DNA of 64,000 nt from Dipteris shenzhenensis (taxonomy: Eukaryota): assembly GCA_047967505.1 (NCBI GenBank), contig CM106538.1, one strand, 5' to 3'. This document shows, piece after piece, positions 6,717 through 64,000 of this stretch. The position numbers and the translations under genes are program-made. Within the stretch, counting starts at the first letter, position 1. Every line of letters starts with the position of its first letter. The notes under the pieces are model-generated. The model was not told where the DNA came from and made no database searches. It saw nothing but the letters and a program-made list of their open reading frames with translations.

Positions 6717-7680
6717 TCCCAGGCCCAGCCTAGGGGTTAGCTTCAGCTTTGGGGGTACTCAGATATGGCCAGCATGGAATGGCCAACTCTTTACTCAAAA
6801 TCCTCCTCAACAACGGCAACCTCAACCAAGGCACGATATGCAACGGTGACAGCCATGATGCCGTCTCCATTTGCATGCAACTACCAACAAGCAGGTTCAA
6901 AGGGACCCATCATTGGGCAACATGAACAGATCTGTTATTTGCAGGAAACAGTCAAAGAGTTAAGGCTGGAGCTGGCAGAAGTAAAGGCTCGACTTCAGGT
7001 TCTAGAAGGGCCTGGCATACAGGCAGTGATTGATGAGGTTGTAAAGTATTGTAAGGCTTCCACCCCTACCCCCCACTTAGTCTCCACAGTCAAGGATTTA
7101 GTTCATAATGAAATACGGACGGCCAAACAGGAGGTCATTGTGGAGTTTGAAGCAAATGTCAAAGCAGCCATGCCCAACAACATGAATTGGATAGCTGACG
7201 AGGATGACAAGCTTGATAATTCTGATGATGATGGTGAAGCTAGAACAGTCTTTATCGACCCTAGTAAAGGTCATGCTATCCTTAGGTTTAATTCACGAGA
7301 TTTATGTCTCAAGATTTTACGACAATCATATAAGCTGAAAGGTGCTAAGCTATGGATAGCCGAGGAACTCACAAAGGCTCAGCTGAAAGATAAAGCTACA
7401 GAATTAGCCAAAGTTAGGGCCAGCAAGAAGGATGATAAATGGGCAGTGTATCGTGGAGGAATAGCAATCATTAAGGAGTTTAAATCAAAACCAAAAAACT
7501 CTCAGTCTTAAAATGATGTATGGCCGACTATATGTTTTCTAGGACATAATCTAGGTACTCTAAATAAATAGCGTTGCTTTATGCACTCTTAGGGAGCTGG
7601 CATGTGCCCTCCATAAACCGATGTATTGGATGGCTTTTCTATTGTCTCGTAGACCTTTATTCTCTTGTGGATGTTCATGT
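6717..7680 (+). mobile_element. ORF1-only non-autonomous LINE-like element, copy 1
   Basis: Contains ORF 6765..7511. A degenerate LINE 3' stem-loop follows about 130 nt after the stop, with no ORF2. A second copy starts at the same base (9297). Confidence 0.7.
6765..7511 (+). CDS. LINE ORF1-like protein, 248 aa (coiled coil, RRM-like region, C-terminal domain)
   Basis: Heptad-like LQETVKELRLELAEVKARLQVLE. LKGAKLWIAEELT...KWAVYRGG aligns with LKGTRIYLDDDLT...KWAAYRDG of the LINE ORF1 at 507-833. Confidence 0.7.
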   Translation: MASMEWPTLYSKSSSTTATSTKARYATVTAMMPSPFACNYQQAGSKGPIIGQHEQICYLQETVKELRLELAEVKARLQVLEGPGIQAVIDEVVKYCKASTPTPHLVSTVKDLVHNEIRTAKQEVIVEFEANVKAAMPNNMNWIADEDDKLDNSDDDGEARTVFIDPSKGHAILRFNSRDLCLKILRQSYKLKGAKLWIAEELTKAQLKDKATELAKVRASKKDDKWAVYRGGIAIIKEFKSKPKNSQS

Positions 7681-7840
7681 TTTAGAGAGCCCTTAGGCCA
7701 CTTGACAATGCTCCAAATTGCCTCACCAACAAGCACTGCATCCATAGTGGGAAATGGCACTACAAGGCATAGGCCATTTTCCGATGGAAATACCGACGCT
7801 TTTTACATTAAAATTTTTTTTTACACACACACACACACAC

Positions 7841-8578
7841 ATCTGCAAGTGTCCAATATACTACGAGATCCGGGGTCACTTTTAATGCCTCTTCAGATAC
7901 AACTTCGGGTTACTTTTCTGCTTTCTCACCTTCCCAGACCAGAGATGTTTGGCTGCCTTTATACATGAGGCAGTTAGACATCGAGACCGCCTACTCAGAT
8001 CACAGAGGCAAGGACGAGATGCACTGGCAGACTCCTCTCAGAGCATGATCATAGAATTTTTTCAGCCTGACCGCACAGGTAATCACCATGCGGACCTACA
8101 ACCCAGCCGGGCCCGGATCCATTGACGCGTCATACTCGATAGAGGATGGACATGCAAATTACACTTGGAGATATTCCTTCCATGTTTCAAGTTGGGGGTA
8201 CGAACAACTGGGGTCACCGCAGCCCTGGTCCAACGTAGAGCTTCCGCCAAGAGATCATGTCGTGTAGCGCCCACGGATAGTCGACAGCACTCTATCTCTG
8301 ACTTTATGTTACCACAACCTCATCGGGCATTGGGCCCTCATGATCTTGAGTTGGATTCTCCGATGTACTTTGATGATCTATGATGATAGTGGTGATGATG
8401 AGGGCCACACTAACATGGACATTATGCTTTTTCTTTGTATTGAGGTTCTTATGACTATGTAGCATGTAGTATGGGGGCTGATGCTTGCTCAGTAGCTCCA
8501 CCCTTTCAGCTTGTTTGTGTCTGGTTTCTCATAGTCTCACAGACCCATCGTTCTTTTGAAGACTCTAATAAACTCCCT

Positions 8579-8633
<55 letters not shown>

Positions 8634-8635
8634 TA
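7841..8635 (+). mobile_element. 5'-truncated RTE-X-like LINE 3' end inserted in a (CA)n tract
   Basis: Translates as CKCPIYYEIRGHF...DQRCLAAF. 3' stem-loop at 8534-8563, then a (CT)n tail. (CA)nT lies on both sides. Confidence 0.8.
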
Positions 8636-8669
8636 TCTTTCTTTCTTTCTTTCTTTCTTTTTTGTGTGT

Positions 8670-8920
8670 GTGTCTATGGGCAGTTTATCGAGATGGGCAG
8701 GCACTCATTCGAGACTTGAACCTAGACCCAAATTCGCTCAATCTTAAACCGATGTTATTTAGGCTAATTTCACAGTAGTATTTGGAAGGTAGTTATGCTA
8801 AAATAATTTTGAGCTGAGATGCCATGTGCACTGGTCGACTTTCTGGTTTATCAAGATGTTGTAAGTCATTTTAACATTTTGCACTTTGTCCCATAGGCCC
8901 GTGAGGCCTACCGACGATGT

Positions 8921-8973
<53 letters not shown>

Positions 8974-9296
8974 ATTTTCTAAGATACAATTAGTATTTAG
9001 TCATGCATCTAAATAATTGGGGCTGAGCTGCCTTGAGCGCTCCCTCAACTCTCTGGGTATCCAGATGTATCTCCAATTTTTTGGTGTGTACTTTGTCCCA
9101 TAGACCCATGAGGTCTTTCGAGGACGTTAATATATCTTTCCTTCTTCTCTAATAGGCTATAATAATTTCGAGCTGAGATGCCATGTGCACTAGTCGACTT
9201 TCTAGTTTATCTAGATGTTGCAAGTCATTTTGACATTTTGCACTTTGTCCCATAGGCCTGTGAGGCCTCCCAAGGACGTTAATATGACTCCCTCCC
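8670..9296 (+). mobile_element. Three short head-to-tail LINE/SINE-like 3' ends
   Basis: Stem-loop + TTAAT + pyrimidine tail at 8888-8971, 9095-9150 and 9247-9296. Segments of about 8798-8924 and 9157-9283 are near-identical. Confidence 0.7.
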
Positions 9297-9728
9297 TCCC
9301 AGGCCCAACCTAGTGGTTAGCTTCAGCCTTGGGGGTACTCAGATATGGCCAGCATGGAATGGCCAACTCTTTCGTCGAAATTGCCCTCAACACCAGCACC
9401 CTCAACTAAGGCATGATATGTGATAGTGACAGCCATGACGCCCTCTCAGTTTGCACGCAACTACCAACACGCAAGTTCAAAGAAAACCCATCATTGGGCA
9501 ACATAAACAGATTTATTATTTGCAGCACACAGTCAGAGAGTTAAGGCTGGAGCTGTCAAAAGTAAAGGCTCGACTTCACATTCTAGAAGGGCCTGGCAAA
9601 CAGGCAGTGATTGATGAGGTTGTGAAGTCTTGTAAGGCTTCCCCCCCTACCCCCCAGTTAGTCTCCACAGTCAAGGACTAGTTCATAAGAAATACGTACA
9701 GTCAAACAGGAGGTCATTGTGGAGTTTG

Positions 9729-12700
9729 TGTTGGTTATGGCAAGTAATGGAAGCTCAGAAATGAGTTATAGAAGGGCAAACACGAGCTGCTGTATTGAAA
9801 ATGCTGCTACAATGAGTAGAGGCTCAAGAGGGAGCCAATATGACAAAGCCCTAGGGCTAAATGCCCTAACTGGACTAAATGCCTCAACTGACCTAGGTGG
9901 TACATGTACTAACTGTACCAATAGTCCTAACTGACTATAACTAGGCCTACAAGGCACATACCAAGGAGTAAGTGGCACCTATGGATAGCCCATAGACTGG
10001 CCTACAAACCCCCCTCCATGGCATGGGCTGAAGTATCATGGGCATGGCTCAAGATACCTGAATATCTAATGTCATGGTTGCACATGTTCATCCTGTAGGG
10101 AATAGCAACCTATGACTAAACAAAGTACACAAATCAAGTTACAAAAGGTACTAAGTTTAAAGCTTGCCGAAAAGCCTCAAACTTAGGTCGAGGTAGAGCC
10201 TTCGTAAATAGATCTGCCAAGTTGTCTTCAGTGGGAACATAAGACAGCCGAATATCACCTACTGATAATCGATGTCTGACGTAGTAATAGTGAACCTCAA
10301 TATGCTTTGTGCGAGCATGGAAAACAAGATTCCGTGCAACAACCAAAGCACTCTGACTATCAGTGAAGATGACAGTAGGAGCAATCCGACATGCATAAAG
10401 ATCTACAAGTAGCTTCCGAAGCCAAACACACTTCATTGTAGTTGTAAAGGGGTGCTTTGTACTCAGCTTCACAGCTAGAAGTAGCAACTGTACTCTGCTT
10501 CTTGCCGAGCCATGAAACACATAAAGTACTAAGCATGAAACAGTTGCCACTACATGACACACGAGTGTCCGAACAACCAACCCAATCACTATCAGTGAAT
10601 CCATGCATGTCAAGTGAAGTATCAACCCCATAAAGGAGGCCTAAATGCTGAGTGCCTTTGAGATATCTGAAGACACGCTTCACGGCATGCCAATGGTGCA
10701 TAATTGGAGTGTGCATATATCTGCTCAACTGTGAGATAGCATACTATAGATCAGGTCTCGTATGGCATAAGTAAATCAAACAACCAACTGCCTCTGCTGA
10801 TAGAGAGTGACATCACATGTACCGCTGCCATCCTCAGAAAAGAAGTGAAAACCAAGCTCTAATGGTGTGGATACTGGCTTCCAATCTGCAAAAGCTGTCC
10901 AATGTACTTGGATTGTGACATCAAAATGCCCCCCTCACTGCTTGCAAATTGGATGCCCAGATAGTAGTGCAAAAGACCAAGATCAAACATAGCAAATGTC
11001 TTCTGCAAATCAAGCTTAAAATCTGCAATTTGCTTAGCATGTGTCCCAATCACAAGCATGTTATCCACGTAAAGGACTAAAATCAGCAAATCTGTCCCAC
11101 ATTTGCGGATGTAAAGGGTGGCCTCTGTAGGGCTGTTCTGAAAGCCAAGTGTGACCAAATGAGTATGAATCCTGGAATACCAAGCCCGAGGTGTCTGCTT
11201 CAATCCATAGAGAGCTTTCTTCAAGCGGCATACCTTTCTTTCAAAACCTTCACCCTCAAAGCCAAGAGGTTGGGAAACATAGACTTCTTCCTGCAAATGC
11301 CCATGAAGGAAAGCTGTCTTGATATCAAGCTGATGTACCTCCCGATGAAAGTGGGCAGCAAAGGCAATAACAATGTGAATAGTAGTGATCCTGGAAATGG
11401 GAGCAAAAGTCTCCTCAAAGTCAATGCCTTGTTGCTGAGCATAGCCCTTAGCAACAAGACGGGCTTTGTAACGGTCCATTGAATCATCAGCTTTCCGTTT
11501 AATTTTATAAACCCACTTAGTTCCAATGGCATTCTTGCCAGAAGGCAAATCACACAACTCCCAAGTTTTATTCTAATGGATAGAATCCAATTCAGCTTGC
11601 ATAGCCTGAATTCAACCAACAATAATTCTGAAAGGCATCTTGATGACATAATGGCTATTCATTGCATTCTGTAACAACCAAGGCATAAGCAACAAAACTA
11701 GCATGCTCTTTCCGCACAGCTGCTCTAGTACAGGCTGGCAGAGGAGTATCTTGTTTGCTGTCTTTTAATGTGTCAAGAAGCCAACGGGGGACCTTTTTGG
11801 GCTCCTCGATTTCAGCTCCTTCCTTGTCAAGATCCCTATGCAAATGGTCCTGATCAATCAGAGGCATATCAGGCTGAATATCTGCCTGCACATGTGGCTG
11901 CAAATGACCAACAGATGGAGGAGGTACAACCTCAGATGGAACATCATCCTGAGCATCGGACGAAAACAAAGACATCAAGTTGTCAAAGATATCTGGGGCA
12001 TCAACAACGAGCTGTTTTTATAGGAACAAAGGCGTAGTGGTAGATTCATCAAACACAACATCCCGACTGACAAAACACTTGCCCGTGCGGGGCTGATAGA
12101 GCTTCTAGCCCTTGCTCTCTAAGCTATACCCAATAAAAATGCACTTGACAGCTTTATCATCCAACTTGGTGCATGTCTGTGAAGGCACATGAGCATAGGC
12201 CAAGCATCCAAAAGTCCTCATGTGAGAAATGTGAGGCTTACGACCCTGTCCAAGCCTCATAAGGTGTGATAGTCTGCAATGCCTTTATGGGACATCTGTT
12301 CAAAATGTAAGTAGCACACATGACGGCATCCAACCACAACTTGTTAGGCAAATGTTTGCCGTTCAACATGCACTTGGCCATCTCCATCACTGACCTATTC
12401 TTCTGCTCAGCCACAGGATTCTATTGAGGAGTATAAGGCACCATGCATCAATGATGTATGCCACGTGAAGCCCAAAAAACAGTAAACTCCTTTGACATGT
12501 ATTCAGCCCCCCGTCTGTATGAAGGTGAGCAATGTGCAGCCCACTCTCATTCTCAGCTAAGGCAATAAAATGCTTGAAGCATGAAGACACTTCAGATTTG
12601 AATTTCAAGGCGAAAATCCAAGCGTACCTGGTGAAGTCATCCATAAAAGTGAGAAAATAATAGAAGCCCCCAAGAGCTGCAACCCTCATGGGTCCACAAA

Positions 12701-15700
12701 CATCACTATGAACCAAATAAAGCTTGCGTGAGGCACCAACTCTCCCATCCTTGGGAAACGCAACACAGTGCATCTTACCAAGCAAGCATGGTTCACAAAC
12801 ATGCTTTGAAGGCATATGCATTTTGGGAAGATCAATAACCATACCATCCTTATATAACTTCACCAAAGGTCCAAGTTGAGGTGTCCAAAACTCTCATGCC
12901 AAAAATGAGTATCTTCCATGGTAGAATCAAGAGCAAAGGCAAGTGTAGCATCATCCAAACACCTGTCATATGCATCAAGTCTATGAAGACCTCTAGTCAA
13001 TGTGCCAGTCAAGACCATGGTAAAGGCATGTGTAGCATCATACTCTGCACACCTAACACCATAAAAAAGAACCTGATAGCCACATGTAGCTATGGCTGAA
13101 ATGGAAATGAGGTTCTTGCGAATGCCTAGAACATAAAGCACATTCTTTGAGAGTATCGGAGGATGGGCTCATCATCAAACCTCGGTATCTGGAGGACAGA
13201 AGAGTCTCACACGAGGATTGCCATCGGACAGATGCGGGTCTCGTCCCATCAGCTAAGGATCGAGGCAGGAAGAGCTGCAGGCATACCCAGAGAGCAACGG
13301 ACTTACAGGTTATGCACGATGGGGGCGGTCGAGACAAAGCAGCATTTTTTCTGTGTCTGCCCAGCCTACTATGAGATCCGAGGGCGCTACCACTGCCTTA
13401 TACAGGAGGGACACGGCTTTGGCCCACTCTCACGACTGATCCACTTCCAAGACCAAGTTTGTATTGGGCTCTACCTGCTGATGGAGATGCGACGACACAA
13501 AGAGACTACTACGACATATCAGAGAGCAGCAGGATGGGACCACCGCACCACAAGGCACTGAGGTAGATCGAGCGCAAAGACAGGTCACGGATTTCTATGC
13601 ATTTGACTCAGCTCCAGGCACTCTGGGGAAGACGAGGAGGAGCTAGCCGACATGAGAGATGTATGGATCAGTGGAAAGAGCCGACATAGCACTGCTGGGC
13701 GAGGGACACAGAGACCGTACACGACGCGACAGGCGACCAGAGCACACAGGATCGAGGTTCGATCTATTTCAGCTCTCCTCAGGGGAGATCGATCGAGGCG
13801 AGGCGTCACCCTTGACATAGCCCATCGGAGACAGAGATTGAGGAGACCACGCACTCCACCACGGGAGACAGCCCGACAGATGCAGATACGTGAGCTCTTT
13901 GCATCTCATCAGAGAGCCACCATGGAGCCTGGATACGTGGAGCCGATTCATGCACTTGGGACTCTAGCTCTAAGCACTTGATATTTGCATGCCACCCTCA
14001 TGCTATTTTGCTACTTTTTTTGCTATTTCGTACTAGTATAGCATTTTAGTACTCAGCAAGGGCCTTAGTGAGCCCTTTGCCCTAGCCCACAGTGGCCTCT
14101 ATGAGTTACTTGATTCCGTACTTTTTCCCATAGGCCCGCGAGGCCTCCTGCAGCGGACATTAATTTTTCTTTCTTTCTTTCTTTCTAGAGTGACAACAAC
14201 ACCACATACAGAAGTAAGAGCAACTTACCCAATACCTTTCACGGTATATGATGCATTATTGGCACATGTGACACTGCTCCCCAGAAATGTATGCTCTAAC
14301 GAGCTGAATAACTTCCGGCAAGAAGTGATGTGCTTGCTAGCACCACTATCAAAGAACCAAGCATCATGAACATCTCAAACTATCATGCAAGCATCATGAA
14401 CATCAGGATTATACCGACATGTAACCAAGAAAGCCCAATGCTGGTCTTGTGCAAAATTAGCGGTTTCATGTCGATCTTCTGCACCACAAGAACCAAATAC
14501 TGCAAGACCACATTCTTTCTTCTTTTCAGATGCAATCCGTTTCCTGCATTCAAAAATATCATGCTGAGGTTTCTTGCAATAGTTACATCTCTTCTTCTTT
14601 TTGTTATCCCCTAAAGAAGAGGCACCATGTGAATGATCAGCATGAAAATGAGGGGGTTTAGCAGCTGAAACCTTGCCTTTGCCTTTGTCTTTATGCTTGG
14701 CAGCAAAGGCTTGGTCACCAGCCATAAAAGCATTGCGATTTGCACGACTTTGTTCCTCCTTGAAGGAGAAGAGCAACCAGCTGGTCAAATGAGAAATGGT
14801 TGGCATTGCCACCTGCAACCAACCTCAATGTAGTAGCAAAGCGTTGATAAGAATCGGGCAACCCATCAAGGGTATTAAAAACAAGCTGAGAATCAGACAT
14901 AATCTCATCAATGTTGGCCAATTGCTCTTTCAAATCCTTCACATTAGTGAGAAAGGCATCCATGTTACCACCCTCTTCAAGCTTCAAATCTTTCAACTGC
15001 TTACGGAGATAGGCAACCCTCGCCTCATTCCACACCTAATACAAGGATGCAAGCTGATCCCATGTTGCTTAGCTGTATTGCAAGACCGGATATGAGGGAT
15101 AATAATCCGTTTCACTGAAATAGCAATCAAGGCATGTGCTTTGGCATCACAACCATCCCACTGAATCTACTCCTGTGTAGGAGCCAAAGTACCTGTAGCT
15201 GCAGGTGCTCTCTAGAAGTAGCATTAGAACCATCACCTAAAGACCCATCCCTGAAGTAGAACCAAAGGCGGTAGGTGTAGCACCAGAAGCGGCATTACGT
15301 GTAGGCCTGGCCTCAGAACCTGAAACAATATGCCATAGATTCTTGGCAACCAAAACATGTCCATCATGTATGACCACATGGGAAAATTGGTGCCATCAAG
15401 CTTGTCATCAGCCCCAAGCATCCCAAACAAATCATCCTTGCTGCTAGTAATGGTGCTGAAATTCAAGACAAATGCATCAACTAGCAAAGCAAATGAGAGG
15501 AAGGCAGCCTCTCCACATCAAGTGACAAAATTCTGTTCAAGCTTCAAAGCTTATCCCTGCAAAAGACTCTGTTGTCCTAAGGTGTACCTGTTGCAAGAAA
15601 AATCCCCAAAAGGCAACACGAGGCCTTTCAAGGCAACACGGGGCCTTTCCAAAATGCAAATGAAGAAAAAATTGGAAAGAATCAATGCAACAACGGTTTA

Positions 15701-16737
15701 ACCAATGATGTATCCCGAAAGGACAGCAGTGAAAAAGCTCTAAATGCGAGCAGAGAGTTTCACCCTTGAAGGAGAGGTGAAAATGAGAGCAAATGGCAAT
15801 GTGAAAAGCCAATAGAGGGCTGGAAATGAGAATTACAGCAAGAGAAAGTGCTCCCACGAGGAGAACAATTCCAAATGAGAAAAGGGTGATCCAATGGAGG
15901 GAAACTCGCAACCCGAGGCAAAGGATAGCCAATGGAAGAAAAAAGGGCTCAAGGAGAGATCTCCAAATCACTTCAGCAATCTCCAAGAAGCATCAACAGC
16001 CGGCACGCAGCACGAGGCAGCAAGAAACACCTCTAAAATGCAGGCATGAACATCGAGGCAGGTTCAAACAACCTTCCGGTGCATTAAAAGCAAGTGCAGC
16101 AGGTCCGTACAGCGTGTACGGACTTTACGAATGGCCGTACAGTCGCCGCACAGCAAACAACTGCCACATGTGCGAATTGAACAAGCCGTACAACTGTACG
16201 GATTCCATACAGCAGGTAGCAGCAACACGTGTGAAGGAATTTCTGAGAAAAAAACAGCTCCCTTAGATGCTCCAAAATGTGGTCTTCTCGTGTCAAAATC
16301 AGGGTTTTCGTGACAAAAGTTCTTGGAGAGGCCTCAAACACTCATGGGTGTGTAGAAACCAGCAAAAACAGCAGGAATGAGGGCTCAGCAGGCTGCCAAA
16401 AAGCTTGGGAAAGCTGTCAATGGCTAAGGGAATGGATTCCCGACTTGCTCTGATACCACTGTTGGCTATGGCAAGCAATGGAAGCTCAGAAATGAGTGAT
16501 AGAAGGGTCAAAACGAGCTGCTGTATTGAAAATGCTGCTACAATGAGTGGAGGCTCAAGAGAGACCCAATATGACAAAACCCTAGGGCTAAATGCCCTAA
16601 CTGGACTAAGTGTCCTAACTTACCTAGGTGGTACATGTACTAACTGTACCAATAGTCCTAACGGACTATAACTAGGCCTACAAGGCACATACCAAGGAAT
16701 AAGTGTCACCTATGGATAGCCCATAGAATGGCCTACA
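9729..16737 (-). mobile_element. Full-length degenerate Ty1/Copia element: LTRs 9729-10006 and 16460-16737 (278 bp), TSD GTTTG
   Basis: PBS 16447-16458 and PPT near 10009. Domain order gag (CNYCKKPQHDIFEC), PR, IN (HSDVCGP), RT ([13 protein letters not shown]), RNase H (TKHIEV). About 19 LTR differences counted by eye. GTTTG at 9724-9728 and 16738-16742. Confidence 0.95.
13155..14186 (+). mobile_element. 5'-truncated RTE-X-like LINE inserted in the Copia pol
   Basis: RVSSHQLRIEAGR...PREQR..LC...HFFCVCPAYYEIR. 3' stem-loop at 14125-14164, (TTTC)n tail, probable TSD AGAGT (13150-13154 and 14187-14191). Confidence 0.9.
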
Positions 16738-19020
16738 GTTTGAAGCAAAGGTCAACGAAATTGATATTCAACAGGAGATCAAGGAACATGAAGCCAGACA
16801 AATCAGAATTGGGGGGCTCCCAAAAGGATGGTACAAGGAGGAGGACTCATTCAATGATACCCTAGCAAATGTCAAAGCAGCCATGTCCGACAACATTGAT
16901 TGGACGGCTGATGAGGATGACAAGCTTGACAATTCTAATGATGATGGTGAAGCTAGAACAATCTTTATTGCCGAGAGTAAAGGTCATGCTGGCCTTACGT
17001 TTAATTCACGAGATTTACGACTCAAGATTCTACGACAATCTTACGACTCAAGATTCTACGACAATCTTACAAGCTGAAAGGTACTAAGCTATGGATAGCC
17101 GACGAACTCACAAGAGCTCAGCTGAAAGCTAAAGCAACGGAATTAGCCAAAGTTAAGGCTGCCACAAAGGATGGTAAATGGGCATGTACTGTGGAGAAAT
17201 AGCGCTTATTAAGGAGTTTTTAAAAAAACCAAGACTCTGAGTCGTATGGCTGACTATATGTTTTTCTAGGATATAATCTACGTACTCTAAATAAATGGAG
17301 TTGCTTTATGCACTCTCAGGGAGCTACCATGTGCCCTCCCTAAGCTGATGTACTGGATGGCTTTCAGTACATGGCTTTTATCTATTGTCCCATAGACCTT
17401 TGGTCTCCTATGGATGTTAATAGACTCTCTCTGTCTCTCTCTCTCTCTCACACACACACACGCACATGCGAGCAAACTAGACATAGTTTCATGCTGTTTC
17501 ACACAACGTAAGAGGCGGGCTTTCCTCTCACATAGGCTAGATGAGGTGATTCGCTCTTTCCAAGGAGGGGGCCCATCACCCCACTATTGCATGGGGGCTT
17601 CTCTCATAGGGGAAGCCATCATTCCAATCACGAACCCGGCTATCTAGCACACATACGCCACATTGCTCTATGATGTCCTCCCTACCCAAGCCCACCACAT
17701 CCACCTGGTTTACCAACATGGAATCATTGCACTGACTCCATAACAGCAAAGCCTCGAACCGCGAGGGGCTACGACCCTTGAGGCTCCTAGAGCAAGGCTT
17801 TTTCCTAAGGACCTTTTGTAGACTTTAGTCTAACAATGCTAGTTCAGTTGGGATACGCTAACGAGACAAAGTTCTTTCTATAGATTTGCTCATTTTCTTT
17901 CTTTATAGATCAGTTGTACAAATCCTATGATCAGAGAGCACGATGCTATTTCTTTTTATTAGAGTTGCCTGCTCAGATTAAGTGATTCTTAGCCTGAAGC
18001 ATTTTGATGTTTGACTAAAATGCGAGAGACACACGCACGAGAGAGAGAGAGAGAGAGAAGCTTTTTAGAGGTCATTCTCAAGACTTGCCCAGATGGCAGA
18101 TATGCTCAGAAATGAGTAAGTTTGCAGCGTTTCCCCGTCTAGCCCTGCGTTTGTTGTTGCAATCTTATAGCATTGCAGGTGCCCCAGTGGAGATGGATTT
18201 TTTCCCTCTCCACCTGGGCATTATAGGGCTGGTTCTATTTTCAGTTTGAAATCGTCACTTACGTTGAAAGAATCGTCTGAGGGTTTGCAAATTTGAGCAG
18301 GCAATATTTGAATACCCATTTTGTAGAATTATATTTAATGTTATATCATTCAGACATACTGGATATATTACTCCTCTTGAGGAGAGGTACATAGATTTTC
18401 AAAGCAGATCCCTTCTTGCTCTTAAGGAGCAATATTGCAGCTTGTGGAGGTCCTTGACTTTTGTCAGCTAAAATAGGAGATACAAGGTTGTTAGTGCATC
18501 ATATTTCCATCACGAAATCACCTTCATCAACAATCGCCATATGATTTCGTCGCGTACAATGAGTACAAGCAACATGAACAACAAAATTTCTTAAGGAAAG
18601 GACATCAAAACAACCACAAAGTGATAATTCCTCTGTTTATTTGCTAAGGATGGTTTATGCCACATGTTCATTGCTTTATGCCTATTAGAATTTAAGGCAT
18701 GTCACACACAATCTATAACTTCTACTTACTCCTCTATCTTGTTTAACAAACCTAGTCCTGCAAACTTCCTTACTTCAATGGAAGTTGGTGCAATGAGCTC
18801 TTACCATCTGAAAAAGATCCCAAACAAATTTTTTTTGGGGGGGGGGGGTTTGGATCGTTTTTTTTCCTTTTTAAATTTTCTACTTATGTTCATCATATGA
18901 TTTCCACCATGTTTTCTTCACGATGAAGGATCCATCATGGTGGGCCTCAAATACAAGAGGGAATATAAAACTGAGGCGCATGAAAAAAATGGAGAGATGT
19001 GTAATGAGAAATTATCATAC

Positions 19021-41080: not shown

Positions 41081-41084
41081 AAAG

Positions 41085-43457: not shown

Positions 43458-43497
<40 letters not shown>

Positions 43498-43593
43498 AGG
43501 GTGTGAGGAAATGATGCTCCAATGAAGACATAATGAAAGGCTCTCATTCATTCATCAAGTTTGACAAGACAAGTGAAGTACAAGCCTTATGTA
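41600..43593 (-). mobile_element. Non-autonomous LTR element G: 3' LTR 41600-41881, non-coding interior, PBS 43429-43440, truncated 5' LTR 43441-43593
   Basis: Both LTRs begin tgttagaaacatggtgaaggg(ag)n. PPT at 41882. No gag/pol motifs in the 1.56-kb interior, which has a ~240-bp tandem duplication at 42498-42974. Confidence 0.85.
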
Positions 43594-44003
43594 ACTAGTT
43601 CACATGATCTCAAGGTGGAAAGGGGTAGGTGGGCAAGACCCAAGATCCCTAGAGAAGAAAGGACCTGTAAATCCTGCCCCACAGGAGAGGTAGAAAATGA
43701 GCAGCATGTACTCCTAAGATCTAGAACCTACACTCACATCAGAGAAAGATATTAGGGCAGCAGAGACAATTTGAAAATCAGTTGGTACAGCTAGCCAAAA
43801 AGCTAGGAAGCTACTTGAAAGAGGTATTGGAACATCGAAACAAGGTACTGGGTCTAGCACCCAAGCTAGCCCAACAAGTACTCACTACATAAAGTTTGTT
43901 ATATTTCCTTTCACTGGTTGTAAGGGATCACCATTAGTTCATAATGATCGCCAGTCCCATAGATCCTGAAGGGTCCCACAGTGGACTTTAATGCATGCAT
44001 ATC

Positions 44004-44054
<51 letters not shown>

Positions 44055-44352
44055 ATGGAGGCCCAGCCCATCCCAGCTCTACTTAGAGGGACACCATCCA
44101 ACACGAGGCATCACTCTTGATATGGCCCACAGGATACAAAGACCACACCCTCCGTCAGCGATCCAACAAACACAGATAGAAGATAAATTTTTTAGCTTTG
44201 AGTATTTTGAGTTTCATAGTATAGCACTCAGCAAGGGCCCTAGCGAGCCCTTTGCCTCAGCCTACAATGGCTTATATGAGTTACTTTTGGATTGTAAATT
44301 GTCTCACAGGCCCGCAAGGCCTCGTGAAGACGTAGATATTTCATTCTTTCTA
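43594..44352 (+). mobile_element. Two head-to-tail 5'-truncated RTE-X-like LINE 3' ends (43594-44049 and 44050-44352)
   Basis: SSHDLKVERGR...PREERTCKSC...ENEQH, stem-loop at 43954-43992, then (CT)n. The second piece resembles 13780-14186 and has its stem-loop at 44301-44331. Confidence 0.85.
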
Positions 44353-45858
44353 TTATTTTCCAATCAGCATTCCAGGTTTTGCACTCAATAGTTAGGACGG
44401 GCACTGTTAGCGAGAGAGTATCTTAGGCACTTAGCCTGCTATAGGCTATAGCCTCACTGGGTGCAATTGCCCCCCATTACAAGGGGAGGAGTGGAGAGAG
44501 GCAAACACCTTCGCTCTTAATCCTTTACAACTGGGGAATATGGGGGCACTCTTGCTGTAGATCCTCACTAAACTGCGGAGGCTTGAAGCTCTGCTGTACC
44601 ACTGAACTGTAGGCTGAAGTATTGCTGACTGATGGCCACCTGTGGCAAGAGCTGTTTGTAGCTTTGCCATAAAACTCCAAAACTCCATTCCGAAACAGCA
44701 TACTATCCTCAGGCAGACGGACAACCTGAAGTTAAACAGGTGGGTGGAGGAAAATTTAAGACATTGTCAGAGGATCACTGGTAATGTAATGCTAGCTTGC
44801 AACAGGATAAGGAAGTACAAGGACTGTAATCGGACCAGAAACCCTAAAACAAAAGGCTTTATGGATGAGCCTGCAACAATTTTCTGTAAGCCTTCACCAA
44901 TCAATAGCATCTTTATTGTGAACTTCTACACGGGATGGTTCTGAATGCATCCTTGAACATGAGTGATTACCTCCTCTGCATTTACATGGAATGACTGATC
45001 ACGACTGTAAATTCAGACATACTCAGCTAGAGCTATTCCTTGAATGCTTTGGGCTGTCAAACCATAAAAAATCCCATGTTGTGTCCATAACGGCATAGCT
45101 CACACTTTCCCGGCTCTCCCTGCTGCCATACCGCTGCAATGCTAAAACAGTCAATGACTGGTATCGGATTGATCGGCAGCCTGAATATAAGCTGCGTTTA
45201 GTCAGGTTATTTTATAGGAATATTAGGCCTCCCTTAAGCTTCGTATGTCAACAGATTAAAAATTTAAGCTCAAAGGGAGCTCTACATGAGGTTCGAGTGA
45301 GGTTGTCACATCAATGTAGCAATGCCGCCCCTATTTGGCTAGGCACACAGAATACCCGTCAAATTCCAGATCTTGGTCAAGTTACAACGCATGACGCAAA
45401 GGGGTTGACCTACAGATTACATAACAAATGCGATCTTCTATCAATCTAACTTCATCGTTGACTAATTCCCTGCATGCCAAGAATCGTGCAACTCGCAAAT
45501 GCAGCTTAGGAGGCCTTTCCGACTTCAAGTCTTCTTATTTTCCGAGGTACTAAGACCACCAACCGTCGGGAAATACCGGGGCTATTTGTTCAGATTACCC
45601 TTTGATTCCAAGTGGAAACTCTCCTCAAGACGTACGTTGAAAAGGATGCAAAAGTCAAAACGGATCTATTCTCCATTTGCATTGAGCTTGTGCAGAGATC
45701 AGTACTTAGCACAAAAATCCATCGGTATTTCTTACCTCACCCCACCAAAACAATAGCATTCAAGTTCTTAACGAGATGGCACTGACTTCCACAAGTTAAC
45801 CTTCAATTTCCCTGAGGCATCGTGAAGCCAAACAGCCGCAAGAGAAGTTCACACTTAC

Positions 45859-49960: not shown

Positions 49961-50368
49961 CCCTTGATTGTATACCTGTGGGAGTATTTGGTGGTACCAT
50001 TTCTTGCACATTTGGTGCATGGACAGCTTGCTGTCTATCAACATATGCAGGTGGATTCACATCCTGGAAAGTGATTCTCCTCATTTCCACATCCCTCATG
50101 GGTGCCTTATGCATCTTCTTCTCATTGAAGACTACATCATGGCTGCGTATGATCTTCTTTGCTTCCCTTGATTGTATACCTGTGGGAGTATTTGGTGGTA
50201 CCATTTCTTGCACATTTGGTGCATGGACAGCTTGCTGTCTATCAACATATGCAGGTGGATTCACATCCTGGAAAGTGATTCTCCTCATTTCCACATCCCT
50301 CATGGGTGCCTTATGCATCTTCTTCTCATTGAAGACTACATCATGGCTGCGTATGATCTTCTTTGCTT
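49961..50368. repeat. In-frame 204-bp tandem duplication in the Copia H integrase C-terminus
   Basis: A 68-aa block is repeated in ORF 49857..51398. The copies start at 49961 and 50165. Confidence 0.95.
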
Positions 50369-51470
50369 CTGGATCCCAAAGACGATAGCCCATCTCTCCA
50401 CTTTCACCATAACCCAGAAAGATGCATTTCCTAGACTTAGGATCTAGCTTCTTTCGAAGCTCTTTTGGCACATGTGCATATGCCTCACACCCAAATATAC
50501 GCAAATGAGAGTAAGAGGGCTTCTTGCCACTCCATGCCTCTTCAGGAATACCACCATCCAAACTCTTACTAGGTGATCTATTGATCACATGCACTGCAGT
50601 CTTCATTGCCTCAGCCCAAAAACCACCAGAAAGAATTGCATTGGAAAGCATGCATTGCAACCTTTCTTGAATGGTACGATTCATCTTTTCTGCAAGTGGA
50701 TTTTGCTCTGGAGTATGAGGGGATGTGAGCTCCCGCTTAATCCCACGTGTATCACAGAAATGTTGAAAGTCATGAGAGAGATACTCTCCACCATTGTCAG
50801 CCTGTAGGCATTTAAGCGTTCTACCTGACTGATTCTCAACCAAGGCCAGCCATTTCTGAAATACGTACAACACGTCACTCTTCCGACCTATAGCATAAGC
50901 CCACACTTTCCTAGTTGCATCATCAATGAATGTCACATAGTATTCAGCCCCGCCTAATGACCGTGTAGGCATGGGACCACATACGTCTGAATGCACCAAA
51001 TCAAGCTTTTTAAACTGTTTCTTTCCCCTTCTTTTATGGGCTGATTTAGTCTGCTTCCCATAGAGACAGTTCTCACAAAATTCAAAATCAGAGAAACTCA
51101 AATGCGGTACATAACCCAAATGGCATAAGAGTTTCATTCCATTCTGGCTCATGTGCCCCAACCTGCAATGCCACAAAGAAGTGCTTGGCTGCTCGGTTAT
51201 TGCAACAACATGATCAAATACCCCTGATACATGTAAGGGATACAAAGTCCCACACTTGGCACCCCTGGCCAAAAGCATAGAGCCCTTCTGAATTTTCCAA
51301 TTCTGAAAGCCAAAAGTGGTGTGAAAACCAGCATCATCTAGCGGACCCACTGAAATGAGACTCTTGGTCAACTTAGGCACATGTCTCACATGTTTCAAAA
51401 TAAATGCAGACCCATTTGCAAAAGAAAACTATGTCACCTACTCCCACTATGTCACATGCATAGTCATTTC

Positions 51471-52330
51471 TTCGGATGCGTCAATTTTACGAGCAAAAAC
51501 CTATGAGCAGGTTTATACGAGCGTGTTTTTCAAGAGATTTTAAAAATAGTATTTCTTTAGGAAATATGGTTTTTACACTTTTATTTTCATTAGAACTAGA
51601 TCCCTTTATCATAAAATTATACAAACTAGTCACTCATTCATTTTTACATAACATAAATCTTCCTATTCATAGACATCCCTTTGTACCCTTGTTATTACCT
51701 TTAAAAAGTATATTAACTTGGGCTTATATATCACTCTCATAAAATACATGTAATATTTAATACTATATATGCAAGGTTTTTCAAAATATAACCCCATAGA
51801 TGTGCTCAAATGGGGTTTTTCGATCAATTTGAGTGGCTGAATGACTATATTTGGACATTGGATGTGAAAGTTATGTCACTTTTAAAAGTGCTGTCCAAAG
51901 GTAGTTTTGCCAGCGAAACTACCTTGAAAGACCTTGTTCAAAGGGGTTTCGCTGGCGAAACTACCTTGATGGCTTGCTTCAATGAGTTTTCTTTGGAGAA
52001 ACCCTTTCATGAAGATAGGTTGAGAGAGGTTTTTCAATGTCACCCCCTATTAAGTAAAAAGTTGTAAGAAGGATCATAAGGGAATTTTCATAGAGAAGTC
52101 TACTCTACATGTGGGTTTCTTTAAAAGCCATCCCATTATGTTCTCACCATTCCCAAAGATTCACATAAATATTCATGTATAAAATAGGCATTCCTATAAT
52201 ACTTTTCATATTTCTAAGTGAAACTATGTTTTCTTCTTATCTATTTTTGTCATATTTTTGCATAGTTAGAAGCTTTTTTTTTCCTTCGCTCGGATGCTCG
52301 GAAGATTTCGCTCGAAAAATGCTCGTCCCC
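51471..52330. mobile_element. AT-rich MITE-like insertion (860 bp) in the Copia H protease region
   Basis: Interrupts the LGNDYACDIVG coding sequence. CATTTC lies on both sides (51465-51470 and 52331-52336). Degenerate inverted ends (ttttacgagcaaaa / tttcgctcgaaaaa). Confidence 0.7.
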
Positions 52331-53052
52331 CATTTCCAAGATGCACACAACCTGTCTTTCCACTGTCATAAGTGGAGAACCATTCCCTATGGGGAGTAAC
52401 ATGGAATGAAGCACCAGAATCCAAAATCTAATCCTGGGATATATGCATCATCTGAAGTGGTAAGCAACTCTGCAGATAAACTAGACAAGAAGAGAACGTC
52501 ATTGTCACTATCATGTGTGATTGCATTGATCTCCTCGATCTTCACTTTTCCTTTGTTCTCCCTTGGACTCTCCTCCTTCTGATTTGCACCCCAATTTGCA
52601 TTCTTTTTCTTATCCTTTTGCTCTCTTTTCAGCTTGTAGCAATCCTTTTTCATATGGCCCTTCTTGCCACAGTGGTAACACTCAATGTTCCATGCCCTAG
52701 ATTTGCTACGAGACTTCCCTCTTTCTTGGGACTTCCCCCTGAACTGTGATTTGCCCCTTTGCACATTTAAGGCTGCATCCTGCTTGTTGCCGTCCATGGA
52801 CTTCCGTCTAATATCCTCGGCCAACAAGCTACGCACAACATCATCAAATTTCAGTACTCCACCAGGTGCAGAGTTATTGACAGCTGTACAGAAGATATCC
52901 CATGAGGATGGCAATGAACATAAGAGAAATATTGCCTTAGTCTCTGCATCAAAATTCATCTTCTGAGCCTGAAGCTGGCTGAAAATAATATTGAATTCAT
53001 TCAAGTGAGAAGCAATGGAGACCCCTTCCTTCATCTGCAGCTCACAAACCTC

Positions 53053-53825
53053 TGATGAAGTTTTCTTTAAAAGGTCTACCTTGATGATGGTGATGAATTC
53101 TAATGGACCAAAGTACGAGGAATTTAACATCAAAAGCCTCGAAGCTTTTGAGGGTCCATAGAAGGAATTTTTACTTTGCAAAGTCTTGTTTGTTCATCGA
53201 AGATCAGGGATTATTGTTGCTATCCGTGTGTGGAATACAACAACGATGATGTAGCAGCATTACATAGGAGTTCAAGATATTTTCTTTGCATTTTGGACTT
53301 AGGAAAGAAGGGTGTCCCCCAATTTGAAAGATGTATGTCGAAAGAGGTAACACAAGAAAAGCTATGTGAAGCAATTTTTCCATCTTCTCCATCTTCGCGA
53401 GGAACCTTAGGTCAATGCACTCACTGCTTTATAGCTTTCATGGGAGTGCTATTAGGTACTTCCAATAGACACTACAATGCTTTACAAATTCTTTGTCCCC
53501 CCATGAATTCTATGGATTTTTGGATTGCTTTGGATTGAGGTGCTTTTTGACTACTTTAAAAATGATGTGTGGCTACTAGGGGCCATAATGAAGATCACAT
53601 ACAATAAAGCTACCAATTCTTGGTGACTTTGGACTACTTTGGAATTGCTTGGGGTCATGTGAACCCCCCAAGCTAGGGGCCACATAAACTCCCCCAAGCA
53701 CTAACTAAACGTGCTTTTGGGACTATTTGAGAGTGCTTTCAGAATGCTTTGTGGCTGTTTGAGATTGCTTTGAGAATGCTTTGTGGCTAGAGCCATGATA
53801 AACTGCTTTGTGACTAATTGGATTC
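53053..53825. other. Unidentified ~770-bp insertion in the Copia H gag
   Basis: gag reads ...YEKETASNKVYL to ~53826 and resumes CELQMKEG at ~53047. The intervening DNA is unrelated. Confidence 0.65.
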
Positions 53826-58261: not shown

Positions 58262-58319
58262 GCATAAATGCATGCATTCATACATACATACATACATGCA
58301 TATATGTAGTTGTGCACAC

Positions 58320-58372
<53 letters not shown>

Positions 58373-59559: not shown

Positions 59560-60260
59560 GATAGAAGATGCAACAGACTTTGACAAGAAAACTAGACATC
59601 ATGTTCTACGTTGGCCTTTTTCAAATGTTGAAAAACAAGCATCTTTTAAAGAGGCAAAAAAATCTAAACATTGTGTAGGGGCCATGGAGAAAGAATATGA
59701 AGGCATTGTGAAAAAAACTTAATGCAAACCTACAGACCACCTCCAAATAAAAACGTTGCTGGTTACTAAGGATTTCCAAAACCAAACTCAAATGCAAAGG
59801 CAAGTTGAAAGACACAAAACAAGGTTAGTAGCTCTCAATAGATAAGAGTAATTTTCAAGAGAATTTTTGCAATTCTAATCAAACTACTATTGTCAATTAC
59901 ACACAAATTGGACTTGTATCTTCATTACATGAACGTCCAATGGGATTCTCTCAGTAGATATCTACAGGGAAAAGTCTACATTTAACCAACACGAGGTTTT
60001 AAGGGAGGACTTGTAAAAAAACCACCTGAAAATCTGACAATCGCTGCAACCTATGTTAATGCTCTAATATGATCGAGTCATGGTAAGCACACCACAGATT
60101 TGATAGTTCAAGTCAAGGCAGAATTGTGTGGGCAGTTTAACGTGAGAGATCTAGGAGAACACTTTGTATATTCAGGTAAACAAGTTATCCATTCACTAAA
60201 TACTTAACGAGTTCAATATTACAGAATGCAGAATTATCAATACTCCAATTGAGACTAAGA
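59560..60260 (+). mobile_element. Highly decayed Copia RT relic
   Basis: Traces AMEKEYEGIVK, RHKTRLVA and GQFNVRDLG in the expected order. Confidence 0.55.
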
Positions 60261-60669
60261 GTGAGAAATAAACTGAGCAGAATTAGAAGTACAGTGGAGT
60301 CAATAATTTGTGATAGTAACAGCACATGAATTACGAGAAGGAGAGAAAACACTCAACTGATATTTATATCAATCGAAGTTGAAGCTGAGCCCAACAAAGC
60401 TCTTCTGATTACAAAGCTTTGACTGTCACTATTACATGAGGACACTCCAGTATAAGCTTGACAGGTAGCTCGAATGTGAGCTCTACACATACTGGAACCT
60501 TGCTTGATTGACTAACGTTACAACTACATGAAAGCGCCACTTTTGCGTTTGGAGTTTATAAAAAAAAGCGTCTCTTCCATGTCAACTGGTCTTATCCTCC
60601 AAGCCTGACAATAACCATGATTCATAAATCCTGGGCTCAACTTAATGCAGTTTGTAGGTCAACATAGTA

Positions 60670-62270
60670 TCAATTCTGCTGTGAGCAGCATGCACTAGGT
60701 ACAAACCAAACCCCCATTGAGCACTTGTCTTCCAGGAACGTCAAAACTAGAACTTGTGCTCGCAATTGAGAATTCAAGAGGTTCACTCTCTTCCCATGCA
60801 TACTTGATACATAACTGCTTCCAGACTTGTATAAAGGAATATCAACCCTCAAAACTGCTATATCAACTAAAAATAAGCACAAAGCCCTGTTAGCCCCATA
60901 CGAATCAGGCCTTCACATTGACACAATATTTGTGGAAGGGTTTCAGCTTTGGCTATGTGTAAAATATTGACCACAATACTGCAGTCTTCACCTCGTCTAA
61001 AGCCTAACTCGAAGAAATTTATACCCTACAGCTTGACAAGCCCACCAGATTCAACAGATCCTCTTGTAAATTCCTACTGAGAAGCATACAGTGGACTGCC
61101 TTTGGCTAATTGTTGGTACATCTCCTGCACAACAACAGCTAGCTACAAAAACATCGATCCAAGTATTTCTCTGGTTCCTTACATGCTGACTGATGCCTTA
61201 ATATATCCTCCAGAGGGCTCACCAAATAACTTTTAACCTAGGGGGCATATTCCAGTTAATTCAAGACTAAATCATATGATGTGCTATGTCTGATTTTGCT
61301 GCATCTGAATACCATTTCTTTGACTGAGGTTTTCACACTTCATTCTGAATACCAAGTACTTCATACACATGTTTAATTATCATATTCCCCTCTTGAAAAC
61401 TTATCTTCCGAAAAATATACAGCAACTACTGTGTTGTCCGCAAACTTTCTTCCATGCAGAACAGCTTTGGCCATGCCTGCTTCTTTGGGATCACTATACT
61501 CCAGAAAAACCTGCAAATGTACTCAATAAGCATAGAGCATCCATCTTGCAGATGTGATCAAACCTGGGACGTAATATTCATACAAACCCAGGTTTTTATC
61601 CACATAGCGTCATAGGAATAGCAAAATGAATAGGGTCATACTTCTGAGTGCCTAATGCTGCAATCACAAACTTGAACGGATCGTAGAATGCAGTACATGC
61701 TATAAAAGTTCAGCTTTGCTTTGTGTGAATATTTGTCGTGTTTCAATATTCTCGTATTAACACACAGACAAGCATGATCACTTCTACATGGTAAAGAGAA
61801 CAAAGCCACAACGAGGAAAGACCCAGCTGCTATAACAATCACATTGTCACATTGTCCTTCCTTATCACAGCAGGTTTATATATCAAGACATGCATCCTAA
61901 AGTAGCTTACTTATTACCTTCCCAATTCCAGGAACAACCTCTCCATTTCCTCTTGATCGAGGAATCACAAGCTTTAAGAGTGTGCCTGCAACCATACTTG
62001 CAATTAGAAAGACGTTACATAAGATAAATGAGGAGTAATACGAGGTCAACTAAGAACCCCACTGAACTAACCATATTTGCCACATTCCTCTTTCATGTCG
62101 TCATATATCTCATTGAACACTTCATCATCCTTCAGCTCATCTGGTGTCACAACCTGTCTAACAAGCTCATTAAAGCACACATCTATGGTTTATCATTAGA
62201 ACAATATATAATCCACTACAACAAGCCCACAAAATTTTCACTAGTAGTAAATATCCACTGAAAATCTTTC
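60670..62270 (-). mobile_element. Possible highly decayed Copia RT/RNase H relic
   Basis: Only weak traces (QRQSTV near 61100, FVPS near 60700). Boundaries are uncertain. Confidence 0.35.
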
Positions 62271-62877
62271 AATCTCCACGATGAACCAAGCCCAAATGTA
62301 ACCATCCATCAATGCACCATCATCCATGCAACACACTAGTGCCAATGGAGGGAAGGCGACAACACTAGTACCAATGGGCGGCACATTGGGGAGGTGCCAG
62401 AGTTTACGTTATCTAAAATCCACAAACGAATTTTTCCTCAACATGTCACCATGTACCAAACATGGTGCCAGAGTTTACAGATCTAAAAATTCATGAAAGA
62501 ATATTTCCCAAACATGTCACCATGGTGCACATTAACAGTGCAATGAGTGGCCAAAAAAGGGTACTGTCTTGGGGACTGCTGCTGTAAAACTGAAACAGAA
62601 CACGTTTAATCTCTGTTGTCATGTCTCCAGGAAAAGAGTGCTCAAAGGGTGAATGAAGTATCAAATTCTAGAGCTAGTTGGCTCAAGACTTTGAATGTTT
62701 AAGGGGTTGAGCCACAGTTTGTTAGCTGAAAGGCTCACTAATTGATTTGATACTGTATTGATGCTTGTCATTAAAAAAGAGGCATTTCATGTCAATTGGA
62801 CAAATAAATATTGCACAGGCCAATAGATGCATAGTGGGCGGTCCTTTATTATTTCACAACACATGAGAGATATTTTG

Positions 62878-64000
62878 AAGAAAGAAAGAAAGAAAGTTTA
62901 TTTAAGTCTTCGGAAGACCGATGGGTCTATGAGACTGTGAAAATCCTAATACAACAAGCTGTGGTAGTGGAGCTACTAAACGAGCGTCCATACCAATACA
63001 AAATGCAAAAATGCAGAATGGCAGTACTAAGTCCTAAGTACAACATAGTCATGTCGATGGTCGACTATATATCAGTCTCAGCATCGTCATCAACATCATC
63101 ATGATCATCGGCAGCAGCAAGATATCAGGATGGATGAGGCAGTGGAGGCATGAGGTCGGCGATAGAGTGCTGTTGGCCACTCAAAGGTGCGGTCCTGGCA
63201 CGTCTCCTGGTCGTAGCTCTTCGTTTGACCAGGGCTACTATGACCCCCGTCGGTCGGGCTCCGACCCTAAAGAAGGAGGGGATGTCCCCAAGTGTGATCT
63301 GTGTGTCGACCCTCTGTCTGAGCTGTCGGGTCACAGGCTCCGGGTCACGGTCATGTCGAGGCCTCGTCTCGTGGGGGTCCATGTGATCTAGCTGAAAGAA
63401 CTCCGTGATAGAGCTCTGAGAGGGATCAGCCGAGGAAGAAGTCTGCTCCTGTCTCCGTGCTCAAAGTATCCTCTCACGGTGTCTAAGTGCCTCATGAATG
63501 AAACCTGCCAAACACCGCTGGTCGCGGTGGGAGAGGAAACAGGCCAAAATCCCGTAACTATCCCTGAAGAGGCAGTGGAAATGCCCTCGGATCTCATAGT
63601 ACACAGGACACCTGAAGATGAAATGCTCCTCTGTCTCAACCTCCTGCATGTCACACAGTGTGCATATGCGCCTCTCCTTGGGTAGTCACTCTGCTTGGAA
63701 CTGCCCAAGAGAGATCCTCAACGAGTGGGGTAGGTGAATCTACATGTATCCTGGTGGGTCAATAAAACCCTCCGCTGTGATATGTAAGAAGCGATCTCTA
63801 TAGAAGCGATCTCTACAGAAGCTAAGATTCACTGGGAGTTCACTCAGTCCCAACCAGGTCCGAAATATGTGTAGCTGTAGTAGATCCTCACGGATAACCT
63901 AGTTGACCTTGTGTGATAAGAGGGGAGAAAACGGAGCATCCATGGTGTACAGGAAGGGAGGTAGTCTATCCATGTGGAGCCCCAATCGCTCAAACCATCT
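62878..64000 (-). mobile_element. RTE-X-like LINE 3' part, continuing beyond the window
   Basis: VETEEHFIFRCPVYYEIRGHF. Stem-loop at 62906-62935 and (TTTC)n tail at 62878-62896. Same subfamily as 7841-8635. Confidence 0.9.

Follow-up and report, generated by a model that had tools for sequence, protein, structure and literature searches.

A two-helix hairpin motif shared by the 3' ends of LINE fragments and ORF1-only elements in the fern Dipteris shenzhenensis

Introduction

Why would transposable elements with otherwise unrelated 3' untranslated regions (UTRs) end in the same short hairpin? The question is raised by a 64-kb stretch of contig CM106538.1 from the fern Dipteris shenzhenensis (the window), repeat-rich plant DNA of 43.8% GC with Copia and Gypsy remains and fragments of long interspersed nuclear elements (LINEs), in which a first-pass annotation had proposed ten copies of a 3'-terminal RNA stem-loop. 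3' stem-loop handles are already known from other LINEs, and the fern hairpin is a further example of this well-known kind of signal. ZfL2-1 and ZfL2-2 are described as requiring a 3' stem-loop for mobility, which is bound by the protein of the second open reading frame (ORF2p), with the loop giving family specificity and the stems being swappable (PMC4176376). In plants, RTE LINEs and Au short interspersed elements (SINEs), as well as monocot L1/SINE pairs, are reported to share hairpins with compensatory changes (PMC6007223, PMC3747384). In the open literature we found no description of a 3' stem-loop for LINEs of ferns or of the RTEX group, and subscription journals or Repbase Reports may note one; the hairpin analyzed here is real and probably undescribed.

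Results and Discussion

Ten copies of one motif

All ten proposed copies were recovered at their positions and strands. Registered by hand, the motif unit spans 29-34 nt. An outer arm of 4 bases is followed by CAU, an inner arm of 5 bases, a loop of 3-6 bases and the partner arms. The latter are separated by 5-8 bases in the window copies and by about 4-8 variable bases in the general fold, which form an asymmetric internal loop opposite CAU. One base, UUAAU and then a pyrimidine tail (UC/UUUC-rich) lie 3' of the outer partner arm. CAU is present in 7/10 window copies. The proposed pairs (outer GUCC/GGAC versus GUCU/AGAC, inner AGGCC/GGCCU versus AGACC/GGUCU) are correct as given. The strict consensus fits four of the ten copies only. 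A 21-base descriptor drawn from the window copies finds nine of the ten with 0-2 mismatches, and none at this level in six block-shuffled windows (0.17 per window at three mismatches). Next, a covariance model was built from the ten window copies and 16 copies from elsewhere, and the window was scanned with filters off. Exactly ten matches were returned at 29.7-62.4 bits, the next best reaching 10.5 bits (E about 4); considering that the ten were in the training set, the informative result is that no others appeared, and the gap indicates that the window holds no eleventh.

Across the ten copies, 84 of the 90 stem cells are paired. Five copies are perfect or near-perfect, those at 8534, 14125 and 43954 have one broken pair each, and the copy at 8888 has C-C at the covarying outer position. 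The copy at 7644 is strongly decayed, with two inner pairs lost, UUAAU changed and no clear tail (34.8 bits). The ten copies fall into five to six families and are not independent. As had been claimed, the upstream 3' UTRs are unrelated between subfamilies: they can be aligned inside each of the families A, B, C and D and not beyond, and mean column identity is 41% (13 UTRs). Stems, CAU and UUAAU are near-invariant across families. Loops differ from one family to the next, with little or no variation inside families A, B, C, D and one outside family. In several UTRs an additional hairpin, specific to the family, is predicted at 40-100 nt before the shared motif; that of family D is kept in both D copies (14055-14082 and 44225-44255).

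Rfam 15 yielded nothing at gathering score in the whole window, and in 8400-9320 two long non-coding RNA (lncRNA) matches only, with E 0.3-0.6, which we took as chance. Among the 26 copies (10 from the window and 16 from outside), none has a poly(A) tail and none a GGAUA loop. The hairpin of UnaL2 and the L2 clade carries a GGAUA loop, so homology to it is less likely, leaving a likeness of function unaffected.

The motif closes LINE fragments and ORF1-only elements

We then mapped ORF2 by tblastn with 16 full-length ORF2 relatives onto the window and onto L015, a locus from outside, complemented by translated flanks. The carriers are five truncated ORF2-type LINEs (B1, D1, E, B2 and D2) and five elements from two ORF1-only families (A and C). 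In B1, D1, E and B2 the motif follows the ORF2 C-terminal zinc-knuckle region, and in D2 it comes after the final codons of an ORF2 of type D. B1 (7838..8616, +) is 5'-truncated and runs from the ORF2 C-terminus through the motif (8534-8563) to a (CT)n tail, flanked by (CA)n-type direct repeats of ~20 bp. D1 (13155..14186, +), also 5'-truncated, lies inside a Copia element and comprises the zinc-knuckle region, the motif (14125-14158) and a (TTTC)n tail; a 5-bp direct repeat was located by eye at 13150-13154 and 14187-14191, with TTCTTT adjoining the repeat. The 5'-truncated E (43594..44049, +; motif 43954-43986; (TC)20 tail) is of a more divergent ORF2 type and is inserted in a long terminal repeat (LTR). 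D2 (44050..44360, +; motif 44301-44331), a short family-D copy, stands directly behind the tail of E, and its end of ORF2 was recognized by translation likeness to D1. Finally, B2 (62880..64000, -; motif 62906-62935) is a LINE 3' part with the ORF2 C-terminus and a (TTTC)n tail that runs off the window. Congruent with the proposed tie to element 3' ends, all five ORF2 C-terminal fragments of the window end in the motif, and a tail follows in 13 of the 16 outside copies. An automatic search for target-site duplications gave a clear one for B1 only among ten window trials, and none of at least 10 bp in 15 outside loci.

Family A is represented by A1 (6717..7678, +), with an ORF of 248 aa at 6765-7511, a 3' UTR of ~130 nt and the motif at 7644..7678, and by A2, 89% like A1 and now in two halves. 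The 5' half of A2 (9297..9728, +) begins directly behind the tail of C3, and the 3' half (16738..17449, +) holds an RNA recognition motif (RRM), the C-terminal domain, the 3' UTR, the motif (17387-17415) and a (TC)n tail. In family C, the 5'-truncated C1 (8677..8972, +) starts in the ORF1 C-terminal domain and ends in the motif (8888-8918) and (TC)24; C2 (8975..9150, +; 71% like C1; motif 9095-9125; short TC-rich tail) and C3 (9153..9296, +; 88% like C1; motif 9247-9277; (TCCC)n tail) are short copies that align to C1, whose upstream is ORF1. The motif of A1, A2 and C1 follows an ORF that encodes a coiled coil, an RRM-like domain and, at its C-terminus, a further short domain; no ORF2 match lies between the ORF1 stop and the motif in these three, a distance of ~130-190 nt. 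The RRM of A1 is partly deleted, by a deletion between short repeats.

What suggests that this ORF encodes a LINE ORF1 protein (ORF1p)? Two decayed two-ORF remnants lie upstream in the window, one at 456..1427 (+), with ORF1 RRM and C-terminal domain followed by endonuclease and no 3' end in place, and one at 2158..4274 (+), with ORF1 C-terminal domain, endonuclease and reverse transcriptase (RT), truncated before the 3' end. In both, the end of ORF1 stands directly before the endonuclease (456-830/874 and 2158-2295/2329), and its C-terminal domain is that of families A and C; homology to an ORF preceding the endonuclease supports identity as LINE ORF1p. For a model of the homologous protein P0143, human L1 ORF1p ranked first in two structure searches with middling scores (Z 5.5, rmsd 3.3 and 106 aligned in one, E 0.33 in the other), and the full-length A1 model matched coiled coils only. 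No Pfam ORF1 family was found for the ORF and the ESM Atlas gave unnamed clusters only; an exhaustive search returned 46 relatives of the A1 ORF at 50% clustering, where a word-index search had given none. A1 and A2 show no third-position excess, and thus no sign of selection on these ORF1 copies.

Another ORF1 homolog, P0156, one of 170 fetched proteins, reads through into the translated motif and then into Ser/Leu repeats. As a control, the strict translated pattern occurred 0 times in 30 shuffles of the 170-protein set, and by its translation P0156 is a further ORF1-only end carrying the motif. Judged from sequence, at least two ORF1-only families (A and C) are present in this one window. 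ARAGORN detected no tRNA-related head, a tool that misses decayed heads. The claimed sharing by autonomous and non-autonomous elements agrees with the occurrence of the motif on ORF2-bearing elements as well as on the ORF1-only A1, A2, C1 and P0156.

The carriers look RTEX-like

Full-length ORF2 relatives contain Pfam Exo_endo_phos, an apurinic/apyrimidinic-type (APE) endonuclease, and RVT_1. Among named sequences, the LINE proteins of the window are closest to those of the ferns Ceratopteris and Adiantum. In an RT tree of 118 unlabelled relatives, identity in the fern-containing group is at least 51% (mean 64%) and falls to ~44% towards a sister group that includes a Taxus protein. E, whose knuckle spacing differs, joins the sister ORF2 lineage weakly (support 0.67, 54 residues), and by mean identity it is about equally far from both ORF2 groups (0.44 and 0.41). 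RTE proper is described as having no ORF1 or a rudiment (PMC3905857), and green-algal RTEX is listed with a short-repeat rather than poly(A) tail (PMC3747384 Table 3). The window LINEs combine APE and RT in ORF2 with a true ORF1 and a short-repeat tail, the tail trait not being specific to RTEX. The ORF2 C-terminal knuckle, too, presumably resembles that of RTEX. Aggregated, the carriers look like APE-type LINEs that are RTEX-like rather than L2, a placement by traits. The poly(A) tail expected of the plant L1 clade is present in 0/26 copies. A plant L1-like RT fragment of the window (20650-21627, -) has no motif downstream and serves as an internal control.

Copies outside the window

The motif was also searched for in metagenomes with a pattern that fixed seven of the nine pairs, leaving the two variable pairs and everything after UUAAU free. 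The scan returned 18 loci, and the same pattern gave a single match in 596 Gb of prokaryote genomes and none in viral contigs, which likewise contained no ORF2 or ORF1 relatives. The prokaryote match (L019) is unpaired at both free positions and has no tail. L010:679-720 was treated as chance, as it is bacterial-looking with 56% GC, inside a long frame and without a tail; its two free positions nonetheless pair, and its score is 21 bits. Leaving out L010 and the redundant L007 (= L005) and L008 (= L014), and adding a copy at L003:826 from a relaxed scan, 16 usable outside copies remain. The tail is at least 67% pyrimidine in 13 of these, although the pattern did not require a tail.

L015 contains an almost open ORF2, from RT to a stop 194 nt before the motif, and L003 has two ORF2 ends in tandem with the motif after each. 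ORF2 C-terminal pieces lie upstream of the motif in L014, L016 and L018, and an RT piece lies far upstream in L002. The other nine have no ORF2 or ORF1 match and are alike only in their last 90-130 nt. As a side observation, the first 318 oriented bases of L004 form an open frame of repeated Pro/Gly/Ser-rich units ending in His, which may resemble a plant secreted-peptide precursor.

Pairing and covariation

Each helix has one covarying pair, and both changes are transitions (outer C-G/U-A, inner G-C/A-U). Among the 26 copies, the outer variable pair is U-A in 16, C-G in six, U-G in one and unpaired in three, and the inner is G-C in ten, A-U in seven, G-U in six and unpaired in three. Among the window copies, each state of the outer pair is found together with each state of the inner pair. 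For the family-level test, the 26 copies were grouped into ~12 families with one copy per family, in 60 random draws of 720 possible, replacing an earlier family-level Fisher test on hand-picked intact copies (outer p 0.0003, inner p 0.05). The outer pair reached p<0.05 in 60/60 draws (median p 0.006), and two wrong-partner controls were significant in 0/60. Thus, the outer helix covaries at family level, through one pair. Alignment A4 is 87.6% paired, with 12 double changes versus 4.6 when shuffled (0/500), counts that underestimate the inner helix as seven rows are mis-registered, and hand-registered counts were used instead. The 12 G-U cells compared with three A-C cells favor a sense RNA, three of the G-U cells being at a CpG, where they may be decay. 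The inner helix is the better folded, with a mean pair probability of at least 0.85 in 20/26 copies.

A number of observations weigh against the motif as a 3' recognition signal of LINEs. The inner pair was significant in none of the 60 family-level draws (median p 0.24), so that the compensation claimed for both helices stands for the outer one and is not significant for the inner once related copies are collapsed. The inner pair covaries significantly among the ten window copies only, where it is Watson-Crick in all (p 0.005); in the 16 outside copies, with seven Watson-Crick, six G-U and three mismatched, it does not (p 0.77). There is no covariation at seven of the nine pairs, whose pairing in the outside copies was imposed by the search pattern, and both observed changes are transitions, the type of decay most frequent in methylated plant DNA. 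In only 10/26 copies does the sense strand fold more stably than the antisense, and energy minimization returns exactly the two-helix fold for 2/26, most of the others adding extra pairs. RNAalifold recovered the outer helix only, from an alignment with the inner helix mis-registered in seven rows. Lastly, the window holds no intact autonomous element. The covariation is weaker than first claimed, with a single pair per helix, transitions only and no more than ~12 families.

Stacking and microsatellite tails

Six of the ten mapped 5' ends start at most 120 nt behind the motif of another copy, positions that make up 1.7% of the window; the 5' ends were set by eye and the cut-off was chosen after seeing the data. 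The stacking crosses families, with B1, C1, C2, C3 and A2 following each other at 7838-9728, A2 being followed by an ORF2 fragment (17450-17771) and E by D2 (43594-44360). The ORF2 fragment (+), from the endonuclease-RT linker, sits directly behind the A2 tail and has no 3' end and no motif. L003 (826-870) repeats the head-to-tail arrangement. Either targeting of tails or template jumping may be responsible, both giving the same layout. Of the pyrimidine microsatellite tracts in the window, 7/13 follow a motif. RTE elements have been reported to found microsatellite families in moths (PMC2887409). Separately, the window has two copies, 87% alike, of a 61-bp compound (TC)n(CA)n tract that share a flank (17426-17486 and 58301-58361 (-)), one of them without a motif.

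A probable recognition signal and its alternatives

We consider it likely, by analogy with other LINEs, that the motif is a stringent-type 3' recognition signal for ORF2p. Its sequence, position, sharing, pairing potential and outer-pair covariation are the observed part of this explanation, which best accounts for the data. The motif would serve as the 3' cis-signal of diverse APE-type, RTEX-like fern LINEs. The element RNA would form an outer helix of 4 bp and an inner helix of 5 bp, separated by an asymmetric internal loop and capped by a loop of 3-6 nt. ORF2p may bind this structure in cis, its endonuclease nicking the DNA and the tail annealing to the freed end, so that reverse transcription would begin just 3' of the helix, most copies stopping early and leaving 5'-truncated ends. 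The pairing of a repeat tail with nicked DNA is discussed as an unsettled matter (PMC13295347). ORF1-only derivatives (families A and C) would have retained the signal and been copied in trans; binding, priming and trans-mobilization are here modeled on the behavior of other LINEs. The invariant stems and CAU are probably a shared scaffold, and the choice of ORF2p may lie with the family-specific loop; loops that are constant within and different between families fit the loop-specificity model of ZfL2. The near-invariance of stems, CAU and UUAAU across distant families suggests an added sequence-specific contact.

Alternatively, the structure could be real and serve 3'-end formation or stability of a non-polyadenylated transcript, through termination or processing near UUAAU, exonuclease protection or export. 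Element RNA without poly(A) in all 26 copies needs some 3'-end signal, which the ORF1-only elements would have to keep too, and a near-invariant primary sequence across families would suit a conserved host factor. On the other hand, ORF2p is reported to bind directly to a ZfL2 element alike in position and two-stem anatomy (PMC4176376), and the loops vary by family as in ZfL2. We regard this role as unlikely when taken instead of recognition, the two not being exclusive. Less probable still is conservation as primary sequence, read by a protein or simply inherited, with incidental pairing and apparent compensation arising from the frequent C-to-T and G-to-A decay of either arm together with common descent. 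The exclusive transitions, the seven pairs that never covary, the family-level failure of the inner pair and its mismatches in three outside copies would all be expected; yet the outer pair is Watson-Crick in 22/26 copies and significant in every family-level draw where the wrong-partner controls are not, all four pair-state combinations occur in the window, arm spacing varies in the loops only, and the flanking UTRs have diverged beyond alignment.

The stacking could also be explained if the motif acted as DNA, as a hairpin or site attracting the endonuclease or template jumps, congruent with the six 5' ends close behind another motif and with L003. We find this improbable, as the tolerance of G-U over A-C points to sense RNA, the solitary copies D1 and B2 carry the motif too, and annealing of tails to microsatellites or template jumping explains the stacking equally well. 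About as hard to sustain, and the least probable of all, is a remnant of a small self-cleaving ribozyme cutting the element RNA at its 3' end. Strong conservation at the unpaired CAU and UUAAU would suit a ribozyme, and the motif may be loosely like the twister core; however, the window has no Rfam match at gathering score beyond the two chance lncRNA matches below it, and there are no conserved partner strands for a pseudoknot, what lies 3' of UUAAU being microsatellite.

Comparison with known systems

How does the proposed recognition signal relate to those described before? As in the stringent L2-clade elements ZfL2-1, ZfL2-2 and UnaL2, a two-stem hairpin stands at the extreme 3' end before a short-repeat tail, on a shared scaffold whose loop differs between families (PMC4176376). 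Unlike these, the sequence is different and the carriers are fern and RTEX-like, the likeness being one of position and anatomy; moreover, stems, CAU and UUAAU are near-invariant across fern families whose RTs share 51-64% identity within the group and ~44% with the sister. The hairpin of plant RTE-clade LINEs and Au-like SINEs is alike in being plant, RTE-group, 3'-terminal and compensatory, on autonomous and non-autonomous elements with microsatellite-like tails, but is described as a single hairpin of 18 nt whose partners are tRNA-headed SINEs of flowering plants (PMC6007223). The fern motif is set apart from it, by description, through its 29-34 nt, its internal loop, LINEs with a true ORF1 and ORF1-coding partners. 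The monocot L1/ZmSINE hairpin is likewise plant and stringent-type, with compensatory pairs and conserved flanking bases, yet it belongs to the L1 clade and is presented with variable stem bases and conserved loop bases, the reverse of the fern motif (PMC3747384).

Elements that encode only ORF1p and keep the 3' end are known as HAL1, HeT-A and Ag-Sponge, which are derived from L1, Jockey and CR1, respectively; in the accounts consulted, none stems from RTEX or from such plants (PMC5786205, PMC5753468). RTE-X LINEs are annotated in Ceratopteris richardii as 8,733 pieces (PMC6890710, Table 2), a label count given there with no 3' structure mentioned in the part consulted, and kinship with the window elements runs via the nearest Ceratopteris and Adiantum proteins only. 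For this RTEX-like group the motif would be the first 3' signal to be defined, and it offers a short searchable tag for poorly annotated fern LINEs and their ORF1-only derivatives. Near-invariant stems with family-specific loops provide a clean test of how a single enzyme lineage retains its common RNA scaffold as families diverge, and the motif may account for the clustering of (TC)n microsatellites seen in fern genomes. How LINEs are generally held to be mobilized is unchanged by the finding. More tentatively, and as a possibility that we hold to be rather doubtful, a sequence-specific RNA handle could be older than the split of the ORF2 lineages (~44% RT identity), common to the RTEX-like radiation and possibly present across non-flowering land plants. 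It might feed several independent ORF1-only families, while elements that target or jump onto tails build arrays and seed a large share of the (TC)n and (TTTC)n microsatellites of ferns.

Neighboring features

The Copia element on the minus strand (9729-16737) has 278-bp LTRs that are 93% identical. It splits A2 and contains D1, giving the insertion order A2, Copia, D1. An LTR-like stretch at 5745-6255 ends in a primer-binding site and has no partner LTR in the window; A1 starts ~460 bp downstream. The LTR interrupted by E (43441-43593) has an intact other copy (41600-41732), and the remainder of the interrupted one was not found after E or D2. Inverted ORF2 pieces occur within or between plus-strand LINE remnants at 1434-2146 (-), and also in L016 (oriented 441-768), as from 5' inversion or later rearrangement. 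Finally, a perfect 204-bp tandem duplication (49961-50369), either recent or an assembly artefact, lies in a fairly open Copia pol frame on the minus strand (48614-53193).

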